A stretch of 64,000 nucleotides of DNA from Verrucomicrobiota bacterium (GCA_036803685.1 DAIRTX010000006.1:3797-67796); one strand, 5' to 3'. Positions 34,186 to 40,995 are shown, numbered from the stretch's first letter. Made by a program: numbers and translations. Notes: generated from the letters alone by a model not told the origin.

Positions 34186-34352
34186 AATACTTTTGCATCA
34201 CACGGTATCACAACGTCCTGCAGAATGCGCGGAGAAGTTACCCATCTAAAACCCCCCATGTCAATGCGGACTGATGATTCCCGGTCTGAATTTTAGTTTT
34301 GCTCCGCCATTTGGGATTGCCATTTCGAGTTGCGTTGACTAGCTCTGTGTTT

Positions 34353-37262
34353 GTGAAAACTGGATTTTCCATCAACTGTCTTTTGGTCGCCACATTTTTT
34401 ACCATTGCCAGTTCGAATTTGTCCGCCGCCGGCACCCACAGCCCGCGCGAACGGTTGCTGCTCGACTCCGGCTGGAAATTTCATCTCGGCAATGAATGGG
34501 GCTTCGCCCAAAACCGCGCCAAGGCCGGCACCGGCAGCGGCCCCGCCAGCCAGTCCTTCAGCGACGCAAGCTGGCGCACGATCAACCTTCCGCACGATTG
34601 GGCGGTCGAACTGCCGTTTAACCAGGGCGCCGATGCCGCGCATGGATTCAAACCGGTCGGACCGGGCTTCGCAACCAATAACGTCGCCTGGTATCGTCGC
34701 ACCTTTGAATTGCCGGAAGCCGACGCCAGCAAACGCATCGGGCTGGAATTCGACGGCGTGTTCCGCGACGCCCAGGTTTTTGTGAACGGCTGGTTCGTCG
34801 GCCACCACGAAAGCGGCTATAGCAGCTTCCGCTATGACATCACCGACCTCGTCGTTCCCGGCGGCAAAAACGTCATTGCCGTGAAAGTGGACGCGTCACA
34901 GTTCGAAGGCTGGTTCTACGAAGGCGCGGGCATCTACCGCCACGTCTGGCTCGTGAAGACCGGGCCGCTCGCCATCGCGCCGGATGGAATTTTCGTTTGG
35001 AGCAAATTTAAGAACAACGTGCCGGAAGGTGATGCGGAAATTCACGTTCAAACAACCGTTCTGAACAAACTTGCGAACAGAGCCAGTGCGACTGTTGTTG
35101 CCGAAGTCGTTGGGCCGGATGGAAAAATTATTGGAAGCGCCCAAAGCCAAGATGGCGTAGGCCCTGACGCACAGTCCGAGTTTGAACAAACCATTTCAGT
35201 TTCAAAGCCAGTGCTTTGGTCACCAGAAACGCCCAAACTTTACAAAGTCGTCGTCAAAGTTTTCGGTGCCGATTCGACTGACCATTCTGCGAATCCGAAA
35301 GAGACAGTTGATTTGAAAGAAACCGAGTTCGGCATCCGCACCGTCGCGTTCGATGTCGAAAAGGGATTTTTACTAAACGGCAGGCCCTATGAACTCAAAG
35401 GCACGTGCAATCACCAGGACCACGCGGGGGTCGGCGCGGCGTTGCCGGACGGCTTGCAGTATTTCCGCATCACGAAATTGAAGGAGATGGGTGACAACGC
35501 CTATCGCACGTCGCACAACCCGCCCACGCCGGAATTGCTCGAAGCGTGCGACCGCCTCGGCCTGCTGGTCATGGACGAAAGCCGGCTGCTCGGCAGTGAC
35601 GAGGCAAATCTGCGGCGCTGGGAAGGCCAGATCCAGCGCGACCGGAACCATCCGAGTGTCGCCATCTGGTCCATTGCCAATGAGGAATTCCGCGTGCAAG
35701 GCACGCCCACCGGCAGACAGGTCGCCCTGACGATGCAGAATTTTGTCAAGCAACTCGATCCGACGCGGCCCGTGACGTACAACGCACCCGTCGGCAACGA
35801 GTTTCCGGGCATCAACTCCATCATCGAGGTCCGCGGCTGGAGTTATCACATCGGCACGAACAACATGGACGCCTATCACGCGGCGCATCCGAATCAGCCG
35901 AACGTCGGCAGCGAACAAGGCAGCACCGTCAGCACGCGGGGCATTTACACGAATGACGCGGCGCGCGGTTACGTGAGCGCCTACGATATCGGCGCAACGG
36001 TATGGTCCAACACCGCCGAACAGTGGTGGAGTTTCTTCGCCGTGCGACCGTGGCTTTCCGGCGGGTTCATCTGGACGGGGTTTGATTATCGCGGCGAACC
36101 GACGCCTTACGGCTGGCCGTGCATCAATTCGCATTTCGGCGTGATGGACATGTGCGGTTTCCCGAAGGACAACTTTTATTATTATCAATCGTGGTGGACG
36201 GACAAACCCGTTTTGCACCTGCTGCCGCATTGGAACTGGCCGGGCAAGGAAGGCGTGGAAATCGAGGTGCACGCCCTGAGCAATTGCGAAGAGGTCGAGT
36301 TGTTCCTCAACGGTCAGAGCCTCGGCCGGAAAATGATGGAAAGAAATTCACACCTGGCCTGGATGGTGCCATACGCGCCCGGCACGTTGAGCGCAAAAGG
36401 TTACAACGGCGGCAAGGCCATTGCCGAAACGAAAGTCGAAACGACCGGCGAACCCGCCGCCGTCCAGCTCGCGCCCGACCGCGCCACCCTCAACGCCGAC
36501 GGCGAGGACGTGAGCGTGTTCACGGTTTCCGCGACCGATGCACAAGGCCGCGTCGTGCCGGTGGCGGCGAATTTGATTCATTTTGAATTGAGCGGCCCCG
36601 GAAAAATTCTGGGCGTGGGCAATGGCGACCCGAGTTGTCACGAACCGGATGTTTTTCTCCCGCAATTTTCAGTGCGATCGGTCCCTTTGAACGACGGCTG
36701 GCGCTGGAAAAAATTGCCGAATGTTTACGACCCGAAGCTCGCCGAATTCAAAACGAATTTTGACGATTCGACCTGGGAGACGGCGGATCCGCAATCCGAC
36801 GGCGGCCCGCTGGGAGAGCGTGCCCAGGCGGTTTACCGCGTAAAAATCCAGGTGACCGGACCGGACCTCGCCGCCCGGGCGGTGGAGTTGCGCTGCGGCA
36901 TGATTGACGAGGACGGCTGGGTTTATGTGAACGGCAGGCAGATCGGCGAATCGCACGACTGGCAGGTCCCCGCCGTCTTTGATTTGAAACCGTTTCTGCA
37001 TCCGGGTGAAAACACCATTGCTGTGGCAGTGGCGAACTGGGGCGAACAGGGCGGACTTAACAAGGGCGTGCTGCTGGAATTTCAGAAAAAATCCGTCGCG
37101 CCCGAATGGCAGCGCAGCGTGTTCAACGGCCTGGCGCAAATCATCATCCAATCCACCAGGGAACCCGGCGAAATCAAGCTGACCGCCCGTGCGGCAGGTT
37201 TGTCCCCGGCCACCGTGTCCGTATCATCACAACCCGGCACTCCGCGTCCGGCGGCGCCTTAA
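34353..37262 (+). CDS. GH2 beta-galactosidase-like glycoside hydrolase
   Basis: LEFDGVF, GIYRHVWL, KGTCNHQD, RTSHNPP, WSIANEE, WTGFDYRGEPTP. Start placed at GTG 34353 with a signal peptide. Confidence 0.93.
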   Translation: MKTGFSINCLLVATFFTIASSNLSAAGTHSPRERLLLDSGWKFHLGNEWGFAQNRAKAGTGSGPASQSFSDASWRTINLPHDWAVELPFNQGADAAHGFKPVGPGFATNNVAWYRRTFELPEADASKRIGLEFDGVFRDAQVFVNGWFVGHHESGYSSFRYDITDLVVPGGKNVIAVKVDASQFEGWFYEGAGIYRHVWLVKTGPLAIAPDGIFVWSKFKNNVPEGDAEIHVQTTVLNKLANRASATVVAEVVGPDGKIIGSAQSQDGVGPDAQSEFEQTISVSKPVLWSPETPKLYKVVVKVFGADSTDHSANPKETVDLKETEFGIRTVAFDVEKGFLLNGRPYELKGTCNHQDHAGVGAALPDGLQYFRITKLKEMGDNAYRTSHNPPTPELLEACDRLGLLVMDESRLLGSDEANLRRWEGQIQRDRNHPSVAIWSIANEEFRVQGTPTGRQVALTMQNFVKQLDPTRPVTYNAPVGNEFPGINSIIEVRGWSYHIGTNNMDAYHAAHPNQPNVGSEQGSTVSTRGIYTNDAARGYVSAYDIGATVWSNTAEQWWSFFAVRPWLSGGFIWTGFDYRGEPTPYGWPCINSHFGVMDMCGFPKDNFYYYQSWWTDKPVLHLLPHWNWPGKEGVEIEVHALSNCEEVELFLNGQSLGRKMMERNSHLAWMVPYAPGTLSAKGYNGGKAIAETKVETTGEPAAVQLAPDRATLNADGEDVSVFTVSATDAQGRVVPVAANLIHFELSGPGKILGVGNGDPSCHEPDVFLPQFSVRSVPLNDGWRWKKLPNVYDPKLAEFKTNFDDSTWETADPQSDGGPLGERAQAVYRVKIQVTGPDLAARAVELRCGMIDEDGWVYVNGRQIGESHDWQVPAVFDLKPFLHPGENTIAVAVANWGEQGGLNKGVLLEFQKKSVAPEWQRSVFNGLAQIIIQSTREPGEIKLTARAAGLSPATVSVSSQPGTPRPAAP

Positions 37263-37309
37263 AAAATACCAGCGCGCTGAAAACCCGCGCATATTTCTTT
37301 ACGGGTTAT

Positions 37310-37343
37310 ACAAAACTTTGTCGCATATGCGACAAAGTTTTGT
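37310..37343. repeat. 34-bp perfect palindrome, copy 1
   Basis: ACAAAACTTTGTCGCATATGCGACAAAGTTTTGT, abutting the paaX stop codon. Confidence 0.95.
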
Positions 37344-38134
37344 CATGACGTGAATGGATTAAAGGTGCGCAATTGTCGCCCGGCTTCCCGAAGCACCTTG
37401 ATCCGCCGGCGCCACACCTGTTGCCCCAAGTAACCAGGCGGCAGAATTCTTTCCGGCAGGAGCGGATCATGTGTCACCGCGTCCAGCCACGCTTCGCGCT
37501 CCGCTGCGGCCCAACACCGTAACGCCTTGGCCGCTGCTTCGTTTCCAAGCGCCCCGCCTGGTCGTTCGCCAAGGATTTTCAAATGCCGGGCATAACGCTG
37601 ATTGATGCGTTCGAAGTCCCAGGCACCCGAGACGATTTCAGCGTCGGATTCCCCCGCGCATGGTCGCGCCTCCAGCAGGATGAGCGATTCCACATTGATC
37701 TTACCGCCAACGAGGATGCGTTTTTCCTCCTCAAGCGAATCAGGTGTAATCCAGACGCTGTTTTGCAAATAGCCGAAGCCTTTATCGTGGAGATAGCGTC
37801 GTAATTGCGCGCGCTGTGAATTCTGCGTGGTTGGAACATCGAACAGCACGAGCCGCCAGCGACCGTCCCATTCGCGCGCCCATCTAGCCTGTGGGTCACG
37901 TCCGCCCATCGCGCGCAGGCGACCCTGCCAGGTGAGCCGATACGTGCGGTCATCAAGCACAGTGGAGCCACGTTCGACCAGGTGCTGCTCCTCCAGCGCG
38001 GCCACCTGACGCAGCAGGTTGTTGCGATAGGCCCAACTCTCGTAAGAGTCCGTGAGGTTGCGGAACGTGGGCCGGGCCAACATTTCGGCGGACCAGAGGA
38101 GGAAATTCAGAAATTCTTCCGTTTGAGGTTTCAT
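37343..38134 (-). CDS. PaaX-family transcriptional regulator
   Basis: YRLT..G wing, WDGRWRLVLFDVP..RAQLRRYL..GFGYLQNSVWITP central domain, AWDFERINQRY, DPLLPERILPPGYLG. Start placed at ATG 38134. Confidence 0.88.
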   Translation of the reverse strand: MKPQTEEFLNFLLWSAEMLARPTFRNLTDSYESWAYRNNLLRQVAALEEQHLVERGSTVLDDRTYRLTWQGRLRAMGGRDPQARWAREWDGRWRLVLFDVPTTQNSQRAQLRRYLHDKGFGYLQNSVWITPDSLEEEKRILVGGKINVESLILLEARPCAGESDAEIVSGAWDFERINQRYARHLKILGERPGGALGNEAAAKALRCWAAAEREAWLDAVTHDPLLPERILPPGYLGQQVWRRRIKVLREAGRQLRTFNPFTS

Positions 38135-38169
38135 GACCGGATATTGGCAAGAGCAGGCAAGTAATGCCA

Positions 38170-38205
38170 TACAAAACTTTGTCGCATATGCGACAAAGTT
38201 TTGTA
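38170..38205. repeat. Perfect palindrome, copy 2 (36 bp including flanking T/A)
   Basis: Identical 34-bp core at 38171-38204, about 36 nt upstream of the paaX ATG. Confidence 0.95.
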
Positions 38206-38274
38206 ATGGCTGACACACCATCGTATGACAAAAACATGTTGGCGCGCATCATTCCTGCCGTGTAATTTGGGCTC

Positions 38275-40995
38275 ATGCAACGGACGATTCTTTGCGCGCT
38301 GGCAGGTTTCACCGTCTGCCTTTCAACCAGCATCGCCTTCGCCGACGAGGAAACCTGCGTGGCCTGTGACCGGAAGGTCCTGGTCAGCGGCCAGTTCGAA
38401 CACGGCCGGGGACATGAAAGCCTGGCGATCCAGGGCGCGCCGAAACGCGGCGAGGAAGCGTTCCGCAAGGAAATTTATGGATCCAATTTCACTGTGTCCG
38501 CCCCCAATCTTCCCGCCGGCAAATACACCGTCCTGATCGGGCTGACGGAAATCGTTTTCACCAACGCCGGCCAGCGCGCGTTCGACATCACCTGCGGCAA
38601 CCAGACGCTCGCGCGCAATCTCGACGTTTTCACCGCCGCCGGCGGCGCGGGCCGGGTCCTCCTGCTCACCAACCGGATTGATTTTCCCGGTGACGCGGCA
38701 CACGGGCCGTTCACCCTCGCCTTCACCGGGCGCACCAACACGGCGAAGCTGAACACGTTCGAACTCAAGGATGCCTCCGGCCAGTCGCTCATTTCGATGC
38801 AGGCGGCGGATTTGATTGACGCCGAGGACACCAACGCGTTGCAAGCGCCCGTCGTCGCCGGGCTGGAAATCTGGAAGGACGCCGCGCAACCCACCGCCGC
38901 ACGGGTGGACGACCTCGTGCAACGCTTGTCGCTCGCCGAAAAGGTGCAGCAGATGCGCAACGCCGCCCCGGCCATTCCGCGACTTGGCATTCCCGCCTAC
39001 GATTATTGGAGTGAATGTCTTCACGGTGTCGCGCGCGCCGGCACGGCCACGGTTTTTCCCCAGGCCATCGGCATGGCCGCGGCGTGGGACGTGCCGCTCC
39101 TGCATCAGGCCGCCGACGTCATCGCCACCGAGGCCCGCGCCAAACACAACGACTACGCCGTCAAGCACAACGGCGACAGCGCGCGCTATTTCGGCCTCAC
39201 GTTCTGGACGCCGAACATCAACCTCTTCCGCGATCCGCGCTGGGGCCGCGGCCAGGAAACCTATGGCGAAGACCCGTTCCTCACGGCCCGGCTCGGCGTG
39301 GCGTTCATTCGCGGATTGCAGGGTGACGACCCGAAATATGTGAAGGCCATGGCGTGCGCGAAACATTATGCCGTCCACAGCGGACCGGAATTGGAGCGGC
39401 ACCGTTTTGACGTTGCGCCGTCCGAACGCGATTTTTACGAAACGTATCTGCCGCAATTCGAGGCCGCCGTCCGCGAAGGCCGCGTCGGCGCAGTCATGGG
39501 CGCCTACAATTCCGTCCATGGCCAGCCGGCCTGTGCCAGCCCGCTCCTGCTCACGGACCTTTTGCGGAAGCAGTGGGGCTTTGACGGTCACGTGGTTTCC
39601 GATTGCGGCGCGATTTATGACATTTACGCGAATCACAAATTCACGGCCACGCCGGCGGAGGCCGCGGCCGCGGCGGTGAAGGCCGGCGACGATCTCTGTT
39701 GCGGCACGGATTACAACTCACTGGTGCGCGCGGGCAAAAAAGGTCTGATTTCGGAAAAGGAAATTAACACCGCGGTCGGCCGCGTGCTCGAAGCGCGGTT
39801 CCGGCTGGGGCTGTTTGATCCGCCGGGAAAAGTGCCGGGCGCGCAAATTCCCATTTCGCAAAACGACACGCCCGCCCATGAGGCGCTGGCGCTGAAAATG
39901 GCGCGCGAATCCATCGTGCTGTTGAAAAACGACAGCCGGTTGCCGCTCGACCGCGCCAAAATCAAACGCATTGCCGTCATCGGCACCAACGCCAGTTCCG
40001 TGGCGGTGCTGCTCGGCAATTACAACGGCACGCCGGCCCGGCCGGTGACCATTCTTGACGGCATCAAAAGTGTGGCCGGCACAAACATCCGGGTGATTTA
40101 TGAACCGGCTTGTCCGCTGGCGCTGCGCAAGGACGGGACGGACAAGCCCAACGCCCAAATGTGGACCAGGGCCATCGCCGCCGCGTGGATGTCGGACGTG
40201 ATTATTTACGTCGGCGGTATCAGCCCGCGGCTGGAGGGCGAGGAAATGAAAGTGGACTATGACGGCTTCAGCGGCGGCGACCGCACGGAGATCGAATTGC
40301 CATCGGTGCAAAACGAATTGCTCAAAGCGTTGCAGGCGACCGGCAAGCCGGTCGTATTCGTCAATTGCAGCGGCAGCGCCATTGCCATGCCGTGGGCCGC
40401 CACCAATCTGCCAGCGATTTTGCAGGCGTGGTATCCGGGCGAACAGGGCGGGCGCGCCGTGGCCGACATTCTATTCGGCGATGTAAACCCCTCCGGACGG
40501 CTGCCGGTCACTTTTTACCGCGCCACCGCCGACCTGCCGGCGTTTGACAATTATTCGATGTCCAACCGCACCTACCGTTACTTCAACGGCCGGGCGGACT
40601 TCGCCTTCGGCCACGGTTTGAGCTACACCAAGTTTGATTACAACAGCCCGAAGCTCAACGGGACAAATTTCACGGCAAACGACACGATCAAACTCACGTT
40701 TTCGCTGCTGAACGCCGGCGCCCGGGACGGTGATGAAGTGGCGCAGGTTTATTTCCGGCAGGTGAACTCCGCCCGGCCCCAGGCCAAGCTCGCGCTGTGC
40801 GGCTTTGTGCGGATTCATTTGCAGGCCAGCCAGGGGGCCAGATTCACCATGAACATTCCGACGGAACGATTCCGCTGTTGGGACGCGGCCAAAAAGCAGT
40901 ACACCGTCGAGCCCGGCAATTACGAACTGCTGGTGGGCGCGGCGTCCGACGACATCCGCCTGCGTGTGCCGCTGAAAATTGCCGCCGCGAAATAA
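38275..40995 (+). CDS. GH3 beta-glucosidase/xylosidase with N-terminal malectin-like module
   Basis: FWTPNINLFRDPRWGRGQETYGEDP, CAKHYAVH, VVSDCGAI, LEGEEM, Fn3-like C-terminus. N-terminal GKYTVLIGLTEI..GQRAFDI. Confidence 0.93.
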   Translation: MQRTILCALAGFTVCLSTSIAFADEETCVACDRKVLVSGQFEHGRGHESLAIQGAPKRGEEAFRKEIYGSNFTVSAPNLPAGKYTVLIGLTEIVFTNAGQRAFDITCGNQTLARNLDVFTAAGGAGRVLLLTNRIDFPGDAAHGPFTLAFTGRTNTAKLNTFELKDASGQSLISMQAADLIDAEDTNALQAPVVAGLEIWKDAAQPTAARVDDLVQRLSLAEKVQQMRNAAPAIPRLGIPAYDYWSECLHGVARAGTATVFPQAIGMAAAWDVPLLHQAADVIATEARAKHNDYAVKHNGDSARYFGLTFWTPNINLFRDPRWGRGQETYGEDPFLTARLGVAFIRGLQGDDPKYVKAMACAKHYAVHSGPELERHRFDVAPSERDFYETYLPQFEAAVREGRVGAVMGAYNSVHGQPACASPLLLTDLLRKQWGFDGHVVSDCGAIYDIYANHKFTATPAEAAAAAVKAGDDLCCGTDYNSLVRAGKKGLISEKEINTAVGRVLEARFRLGLFDPPGKVPGAQIPISQNDTPAHEALALKMARESIVLLKNDSRLPLDRAKIKRIAVIGTNASSVAVLLGNYNGTPARPVTILDGIKSVAGTNIRVIYEPACPLALRKDGTDKPNAQMWTRAIAAAWMSDVIIYVGGISPRLEGEEMKVDYDGFSGGDRTEIELPSVQNELLKALQATGKPVVFVNCSGSAIAMPWAATNLPAILQAWYPGEQGGRAVADILFGDVNPSGRLPVTFYRATADLPAFDNYSMSNRTYRYFNGRADFAFGHGLSYTKFDYNSPKLNGTNFTANDTIKLTFSLLNAGARDGDEVAQVYFRQVNSARPQAKLALCGFVRIHLQASQGARFTMNIPTERFRCWDAAKKQYTVEPGNYELLVGAASDDIRLRVPLKIAAAK

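Follow-up and report, generated by a model that had tools for sequence, protein, structure and literature searches.

A PaaX-like gene enclosed by two palindromes in Verrucomicrobiota and its putative partnership with a REP-like repeat family

The stretch of DNA analysed here, referred to as the window, comprises 64,000 nucleotides from Verrucomicrobiota bacterium (GCA_036803685.1 DAIRTX010000006.1:3797-67796) and carries a PaaX-like gene that lies between two identical copies of a 34-bp perfect palindrome, ACAAAACTTTGTCGCATATGCGACAAAGTTTTGT. Palindrome, gene and palindrome constitute a discrete, self-contained cassette, because sequence conservation among homologous loci ends at the outer edges of the palindromes and because a close relative lacks the whole segment at the corresponding junction. 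With moderate confidence these features, together with the many dispersed copies of the palindrome, may be explained by a DNA-binding-type protein of the PaaX family that has a cognate family of palindromes resembling repetitive extragenic palindromic (REP) elements. Within this composite explanation it is probable that the palindrome is the binding site of the protein and that the upstream copy serves autoregulation, given the near-universal, position-fixed linkage to one gene, the precedent of the PaaX operator and the geometry of the promoter. What emerges is an orphan PaaX branch that appears tied to a palindromic repeat family around its own gene, scattered like REP elements, and not to phenylacetate genes.

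The cassette and its conservation

The palindrome occurs exactly twice in the window (Table 1), where none is expected by chance (0 copies in 100 shuffles). A third copy is absent from the 64 kb even when up to three mismatches are allowed, and profiles of the full site and of the half-site detect no other full sites or half-sites there. A description made from the sequence alone (the sequence-only reading) had reported two identical palindromes around the gene, an exact direct repeat of 36 bp, a cassette antisense to the co-directional GH2 and GH3 genes and a lack of phenylacetate genes nearby, all of which hold. The direct repeat consists of 37308-37343 and 38169-38204 and extends to 39 identical positions across 40 nt; the PaaX-like gene is on the minus strand between plus-strand neighbours, and none of the 15 open reading frames (ORFs) scanned in the 23-49 kb part of the window is a phenylacetate gene. 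The arms of the upstream palindrome continue imperfectly to about 38166-38210 (GCCAT...AATGGC).

The most likely start of the gene is the ATG at 38134, which is conserved among relatives. A mechanical ORF start at 38221 was rejected, as that frame merely runs through the palindrome. The TGA stop codon (37345-37343) shares one base with the downstream palindrome. The encoded protein matches the central PaaX_M domain (PF20803, named by Pfam the 'central Cas2-like domain') across the full profile with E=4.3e-20 and 72 bits against a cut-off of 24; the sequence-only reading had likewise ascribed a Cas2-like central fold to PaaX. The match to PaaX_C (PF08223) falls just short of its cut-off (21.8 against 22 bits). 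Furthermore, the family profile aligns with residues 105-270 of E. coli PaaX (PDB 8a39, E=4e-7), weak sequence matches are obtained to 8a39 and 3kfw, and residues 93-129 are locally similar to Cas2 models (TIGR01573, 22.2 against 24.5 bits; PADLOC, E=6e-6). The N-terminal 86 or so residues have no significant family match, and residues 36-74 give only sub-threshold matches to other winged-helix-type families (E about 0.01).

In the protein database 1686 relatives are found at E<=0.001, the best 120 of which are all at least 75% identical. Residue D99 does not vary in the alignments. Those with a named source are labelled Verrucomicrobia with one exception, Haliangiales, and at 70% identity or more the branch extends across many Verrucomicrobiota lineages with over 500 metagenomic instances. 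The loci compared were fetched by the protein and not by the palindrome; they comprise 11 loci from genomes, 80 from metagenomes (of 525 confirmed relatives) and three long-contig contexts, and palindromes were located by a purely positional search for dyad symmetry. About 95 of the approximately 100 PaaX-like loci, nearly every one with enough flanking sequence, have the palindrome on both sides of the gene. The proximal edge of the upstream copy is 36±1 nt from the ATG at nearly all homologous loci (36 nt in the window), and the downstream copy lies -1 to +10 nt from the stop codon at most of them. Column-wise conservation starts and stops exactly at the outer palindrome edges in 74 distinct upstream and 67 distinct downstream segments. 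This arrangement is kept regardless of the neighbours, which are unrelated between lineages: cassettes occupy the gap between PSCyt2/PSD1 and DUF1501 genes, or lie beside a DarT-Macro pair and an integrase or beside ThuA-like genes. No paa genes are found around the homologues in the three long-contig contexts.

Several individual loci deserve description. At L020/L021 (6001-12897) the cassette adjoins the DarT-Macro pair, an AAA_14/DUF4143 gene and a phage-type integrase, a region that resembles a mobile or defence island. The metagenome-assembled genome (MAG) JAHCLO contains two cassette copies (L123 and L125), one of which has an apparent frameshift near residue 149; its second cassette is degenerate (59% over residues 2-83 plus a fragment), and the upstream palindrome and leader are nearly identical to those of the first. 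Some MAGs with a Verrucomicrobia-type cassette or palindromes are labelled Akkermansia muciniphila, Bifidobacterium, Haliangiales or Bifidobacteriaceae (L002, CAMAUZ; L121, CAZLOH; L053/L222, DASPXS; L067/L246, CAZNOE), which probably reflects mis-binning or mislabelling.

Dispersed copies and symmetry of the palindrome

The palindrome is not confined to the cassette. The exact 34-mer is present at 17 loci in nine Verrucomicrobiota MAGs, its 18-nt core TTGTCGCATATGCGACAA at 110 loci or more and a variant core TTGTTGCATATGCAACAA at 120 or more further loci. Each core scan also gave roughly 20 matches outside the phylum, which resemble chance hits or ordinary terminators. The gene is missing from 12 of the 17 exact-match loci and more than 170 sites are solitary, so that the palindrome is scattered independently of PaaX-like genes, a distribution that the sequence-only reading had itself named as evidence against its proposal. 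Outward from the fixed core the motif reads T, C/T, A, A, A, N, C. Its final C, at position 16, shows 99% conservation despite lying outside the search pattern, and conservation is gone at position 17.

Of 178 solitary sites entered into a placement test, 116 fall in a called intergenic gap and 29 inside called ORFs. By type of gap the former comprise 48 convergent, 13 divergent and 55 co-directional sites (among the matches listed), compared with 85, 105 and 252 control gaps at the same loci, a convergent over divergent enrichment with a Fisher odds ratio of 4.6 (p=3.5e-6) for which sites and controls alike depend on crude gene calls based on GC content at third codon positions. This placement fits REP-like elements or terminators and not operators. 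Three Pfam scans found no functional theme among the genes beside solitary sites, which include rhomboid, epimerase, AlgH, alanine dehydrogenase, QueG/RNase R, HsdR, aminotransferase and BrkB-Rrf2 genes. Several solitary sites are at orthologous positions in different species, with 34 of 34 bases identical and flanks of 74-89% identity (L004/L013/L017).

In part of the genomes the palindrome is embedded in larger repeats. All nine palindromes of the MAG CAMAUZ (L002, L009, L010, L032, L037, L076, L083, L084 and L087) have the same position inside a dispersed repeat of about 340 bp, which extends in conserved blocks from about 110 nt to the left to 190 nt to the right of each palindrome and has roughly matching ends of 13-16 nt (AGCCTGCCAACGT / ACGTCGGCGGCT). 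This repeat occurs in both orientations beside unrelated genes. Other MAGs have common flanks around their palindromes or tandem units of 121-221 bp. Close palindrome pairs with similar flanks are seen at L079 (5239/5460, a 221-bp unit) and L039 (25/214, a 189-bp unit), a pair 121 bp apart at L223 (3907/4028) and a pair 1441 bp apart around a different ORF of 251 aa at L207 (1330/2771). A larger element of the miniature inverted-repeat transposable type around the window palindromes was considered and rejected, flanks being unrelated except at orthologous loci and in a few MAGs.

A RACo (DUF4445) gene contains one solitary palindrome in its reading frame, translated as TKLCRICDKV (type A). Among 120 RACo orthologues, those at least 82% identical have either this peptide or AKLCPTWDKV, which corresponds to the 'type B' palindrome GCAAAACTTTGTCCCAC|GTGGGACAAAGTTT and was confirmed in the DNA of three contigs. 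Orthologues at 78% identity or less have a loop that is 11 codons shorter or contains unrelated repeat-like inserts, and this loop is so hypervariable that neither insertion boundaries nor a target-site duplication can be assigned to the RACo copy. The same surface loop (equivalent to about 3840-3910 in L014) holds many unrelated in-frame inserts in other lineages (orthologues P0144-P0164), for example RGNEAHSS…SEPPHVGCY. They look like translated dispersed repeats, which suggests that the loop is a hot spot where inserted repeats are tolerated.

Symmetry was assessed on 119 distinct 44-mers flanking the gene, whose selection relied on position irrespective of sequence. Symmetric cells amount to 91.8% against 78.3% after shuffling, cells changed on both sides to 282 against 100, and the covariation score to 0.371 against 0.137, a value reached by none of 500 shuffles and by no slid control (<=0.10), with the reservation that shared descent inflates these statistics. 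Double-sided changes affect 12 of the 17 pairs. The innermost pair, which cannot pair in a hairpin, switches from TA to CG or GC in 12 sequences and is symmetric in 94.5% of cells, modest evidence of symmetric change at the very centre of the palindrome. Selection at the RNA level was considered and is unsupported, as wobble intermediates are no commoner than C:A mismatches. Because the central pair covaries and wobbles are not preferred, the pattern favours recognition of a dyad-symmetric DNA duplex, or a copying mechanism, over an RNA stem. At a single site, four mirrored substitutions can separate close relatives (GTCGCAT|ATGCGAC versus GTCCCAC|GTGGGAC), and the same switch recurs at the RACo site. 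Variants also tend to sort by genome: among the matches listed, C-type genomes have 9, 10, 6, 6, 6 and 5 C-type sites and no T-type site, and T-type genomes (GTTGC|GCAAC) have T-type counts of 6, 5 and 5, each with at most one site of the C type.

The 3'-end bias of the solitary sites would also suit structural RNA or DNA hairpins, acting as bidirectional terminators or 3'-end stabilisers and functionally unrelated to the PaaX-like protein. The window palindromes are predicted to fold stably on both strands (-23 to -30 kcal/mol, z -6 to -8), their layout resembles that of an A-tract, a stem and a T-tract, and the stem positions covary. Nevertheless, a generic promoter and terminator scan called no intrinsic terminators in 37100-38400, a T-run after the stem is absent at both copies, and neither the palindromes nor the larger repeats match an Rfam family. 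A terminator has no need of the primary-sequence conservation seen out to ±16, and the would-be loop positions change symmetrically as well, without a preference for wobble intermediates. A separate GC hairpin with a T-run already stands between the GH2 stop codon and the downstream palindrome, the upstream copy is at the putative promoter and not at a 3' end, and the near-universal linkage to one gene is left unexplained, all of which makes this the least probable of the explanations considered.

An ordinary regulon, in which an autoregulated repressor possibly loops the 861-bp interval between its two sites and the remaining palindromes are operators with no repeat behaviour, is unlikely for other reasons. 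It would agree with the membership of the central domain in the PaaX family, with the long inverted-repeat operator reported for E. coli PaaX (PMC9493321) and with the fixed position of the upstream site beside the putative promoter. Solitary sites are kept at orthologous positions across species, and most genomes have one core type, as if the sites tracked the specificity of one protein. On the other hand, solitary sites are depleted in divergent promoter gaps and enriched at convergent 3' ends, and a common theme among the adjacent genes is lacking. In quality the sites are all-or-none, neither weaker versions nor half-sites being present in the 64 kb of the window; one copy is in frame inside a gene and some are inside larger dispersed or tandem repeats. 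Furthermore, four mirrored substitutions at one site between close genomes are not predicted by operator drift. The narrower proposal of the sequence-only reading, a repressor whose operators flank its own gene, nonetheless stays plausible, since the upstream copy abuts a conserved -35/-10-like pair and E. coli PaaX is reported to bind a long inverted repeat.

It has also been considered that the protein itself copies, homogenises or maintains the palindrome family, which would make a REP-like system with a partner outside the HUH class. A copying agent would explain the mirrored multi-base switches, the A-to-B switch shared by gene-flanking and solitary copies, and the in-frame insertion in RACo. 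This is regarded as doubtful, and no mobilising chemistry is known for PaaX or the Cas2 fold.

Some observations weigh against the preferred composite of a PaaX-family protein and a cognate REP-like family. The N-terminal winged-helix domain of PaaX (PF07848) has no match in the protein sequence, and a structure model built on a 20-sequence alignment is too poor to use (predicted local distance difference test score 39.7). The number of palindromes per genome is low for REPs: many MAGs have 5-10 loci and the best-sampled ones at least 9-10, these counts being lower bounds. The solitary sites at orthologous positions speak for a host function and stability over active mobility. A few genomes hold both C-type and T-type cores, and in the CAZIFU bin the gene-flanking cores (GTCC..GGAC) are unlike its six canonical solitary sites. 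To these are added the crude gene calls and the shared descent mentioned above.

Presence, absence and orientation of the cassette

The MAG CAVYLE, whose GH3 is 89% identical to that of the window, has GH2 and GH3 adjacent to one another and neither a PaaX-like gene nor a palindrome at the junction; it carries solitary palindromes elsewhere (L013, L014). The counterpart of the window's GH3 start codon comes 94 nt after the GH2 stop codon, although gene calling in CAVYLE put the GH3 start 35 nt past the GH2 stop (926 aa). The flanks of the junction (L329) align with window positions 37262-37309 and 38222-38275, and the missing segment therefore corresponds to both palindromes and all that lies between them. 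CAVYLE is nearer to one cassette-bearing MAG, by distances in the RACo region, than that MAG is to another, so that a loss in CAVYLE appears likelier than a gain elsewhere, as judged from this one region. GH3 orthologues of 75-82% identity have different upstream neighbours and are without the cassette.

The CAVYLE junction contains ATGCGACAAAATCATGTTGTCGCA, which has the look of the palindrome's half-sites in exchanged order. It was rejected as a palindrome remnant and assigned to the native 5' region of GH3, because the segment is present with or without the cassette. Window positions 38222-38270 form a conserved segment upstream of GH3, gaYcaaaaWcaKgttggcgcgc…gccgtgtaattt, which is also found 5' of GH3 in L329 and L331.

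The sequence-only reading had proposed a mobile or invertible cassette whose palindromes act as site-specific recombination sites, in the manner of lox or FRT, or as hairpin sites. The notion of a discrete unit survives, given that close relatives either have or lack the cassette as a whole and that its conservation stops at the palindrome edges. Neighbourhoods that vary by lineage also agree with movement, as does the degenerate second copy of JAHCLO with its near-identical upstream palindrome and leader; in one context the cassette separates a PSCyt2/PSD1 gene from a DUF1501 gene, two genes that are usually side by side. Recombination and inversion, however, find no such backing. PaaX_M and, just below its cut-off, PaaX_C are the only domains detected in the cassette, with no recombinase, transposase or integrase domain, and the plasmid and phage collections searched hold no close relatives of the protein. 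The palindrome is symmetric through its centre and hence has no directionality. A symmetric core had been thought to permit inversion as well as excision, but the orientation relative to GH3 is constant at every GH3-context locus examined (PaaX 77-100% identical). The sequence-only reading had also suggested a search for an empty GH2-GH3 site with one palindrome copy, which is what excision between the repeats would leave; the empty junction that was found has none. Most copies, moreover, stand alone at a distance from any PaaX-like gene, and an invertible or mobile cassette is considered improbable.

Putative promoter and comparison with known systems

Sixty-five distinct versions of the 36-nt leader that separates the ATG from the upstream palindrome were compared, with positions counted from the A of the start codon. 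Position -35 is a T in 88% of the leaders, and most of them have G at -33, C at -32 and T at -30; nearer to the gene, 74% have an A at -11 and 75% a T at -7. The -35-like hexamer is TTGCAT in most lineages and TGGCAT in the window, and the ATTGC/ATGGC block beside the upstream palindrome is conserved across loci. Across the 65 leaders no Shine-Dalgarno-like or purine-rich ribosome-binding run stands out. The conserved bases correspond to the canonical -35 and -10 positions of a sigma-70 promoter for a transcript that would begin at the start codon, and from their position relative to that codon a leaderless mRNA is proposed. The generic promoter scan did not call this putative promoter.

It is proposed that the PaaX-family protein has its cognate DNA sites in the two palindromes that enclose its gene. 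The first site, the promoter, the gene and the second site would make up one compact unit, found conserved across the Verrucomicrobiota of soil and peat. The upstream site (-70 to -37) abuts the -35 element of the apparent leaderless, sigma-70-type promoter, a position from which the protein most likely controls its own synthesis, and the downstream site, abutting the stop codon, would mark the other boundary of the unit. The dispersed copies appear REP-like, being placed mostly at 3' ends between convergent genes and sometimes in frame or in larger repeats, with variants that change on both arms together and predominate genome by genome.

Table 1 Features of the cassette and its neighbours, in window positions
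Feature	Position	Strand	Remarks
Cassette extent	37310..38221		segment absent from the CAVYLE junction; right end ±5 nt
Downstream palindrome	37310..37343		34 bp, perfect; last base is the first base of the minus-strand TGA
PaaX-like gene	37343..38134	-	263 aa plus stop; PaaX_M domain
-10-like hexamer CAATAT	38141..38146	-	-12..-7 from the A of the ATG
-35-like hexamer TGGCAT	38164..38169	-	17 nt upstream of the -10-like hexamer; abuts the palindrome
Upstream palindrome	38171..38204		34 bp, perfect; -70..-37 from the ATG
GH2	34299-37262	+	neighbour of the cassette
GH3	38275-40995	+	neighbour of the cassette

The closest characterised relative is PaaX of E. coli and Pseudomonas, known as a repressor specific to the phenylacetate pathway whose DNA binding phenylacetyl-CoA releases. 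The protein shares with it the central PaaX_M (Cas2-like) domain, alongside a weak C-terminal match. The operator reported for E. coli PaaX is an inverted repeat of 39 bp, TGATTC-N27-GAATCA (PMC9493321). The putative target described here is likewise a long dyad-symmetric site (34-46 bp, compared with 39 bp) and, as for PaaX at Px, it lies at the putative promoter of the gene itself. Unlike the PaaX operator with its two distal hexamers, it is conserved along its whole length, and there is a second site at the stop codon as well as copies dispersed at 3' ends. A further difference is that paa genes are not found nearby, whereas according to a 2026 survey paaX is rarely encountered outside the phenylacetate context (PMC13186573). 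The protein also lies far below the cut-off of the PaaX equivalog model TIGR02277 (64 against 264.55 bits), and the N-terminal PaaX domain is undetected by sequence. The annotation 'PaaX / phenylacetic acid degradation operon negative regulatory protein' is misleading for this orphan PaaX-like family.

The presence of dispersed REP-like copies and of a gene between its own repeats means that the architecture parallels that of REP elements and their REP-associated tyrosine transposases (RAYTs). In both systems a gene lies between its own palindromic repeats, extragenic copies favour convergent gene ends, and sequence variants are specific to lineages. The partner differs, being a PaaX/Cas2-fold protein in place of an HUH/Y1 transposase. 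The palindromes are perfect over 34 bp and have no GTAG-type 5' tetranucleotide, many of them are stable at orthologous positions, and about ten or more copies per genome are known (a lower bound), whereas REP families typically reach tens to hundreds of copies. The related contig L326 (18480-19350) has a 150-aa Y1_Tnp gene, which is IS200/RAYT-like, between different REP-like repeats of its own (…GTAGCCCACNGNGCNNNCNGTGGGAA…), and a classical REP/RAYT system therefore coexists in this genome group.

The RACo copy is reminiscent of Rickettsia palindromic elements (RPE), in that a palindromic repeat sits in frame where a surface loop tolerates it and has persisted through speciation, a likeness that refers to this one characterised intragenic site. 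RPE are 100-150 bp long and have no dedicated partner gene, unlike the palindrome described here, which flanks one. With loxP and FRT the palindrome shares its length of 34 bp and the arrangement of two identical sites around a segment. Recombination at loxP and FRT depends on a tyrosine recombinase, and the 13-bp arms of those sites enclose an 8-bp spacer that is asymmetric. The palindrome described here keeps its symmetry across the centre, no recombinase is encoded in the cassette, no inversion is seen and the empty site lacks a copy. The arrangement is also unlike CRISPR-Cas, as there are only two repeats, 827 bp apart, and the neighbours scanned include no cas genes.

In the literature searched no description of an association between PaaX and palindromes was found. 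If the protein binds the sites, the two together would constitute a DNA-protein system that spans a phylum of abundant soil bacteria. If true, this would be a second, independent instance of a gene flanked by its own dispersed repeats, a design so far associated with RAYT transposases. The 263-aa protein and the 34-bp site offer a concrete pair for asking how repeat families stay uniform and whether they act at gene ends.

Beyond its immediate neighbours, the cassette is accompanied by GH95, DUF2264 and FGGY kinase genes on one side and by type II secretion/pilus genes on the other. The stretch from the GH2 stop codon to the downstream palindrome (37261-37300) contains an A-run, a 5-bp GC stem (37272-37276 with 37286-37290) and a T-rich stretch, and on the minus strand TGGTATTTTTT follows the stem. 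This structure, which the scan did not call, resembles a bidirectional terminator common to GH2 and the PaaX-like gene.

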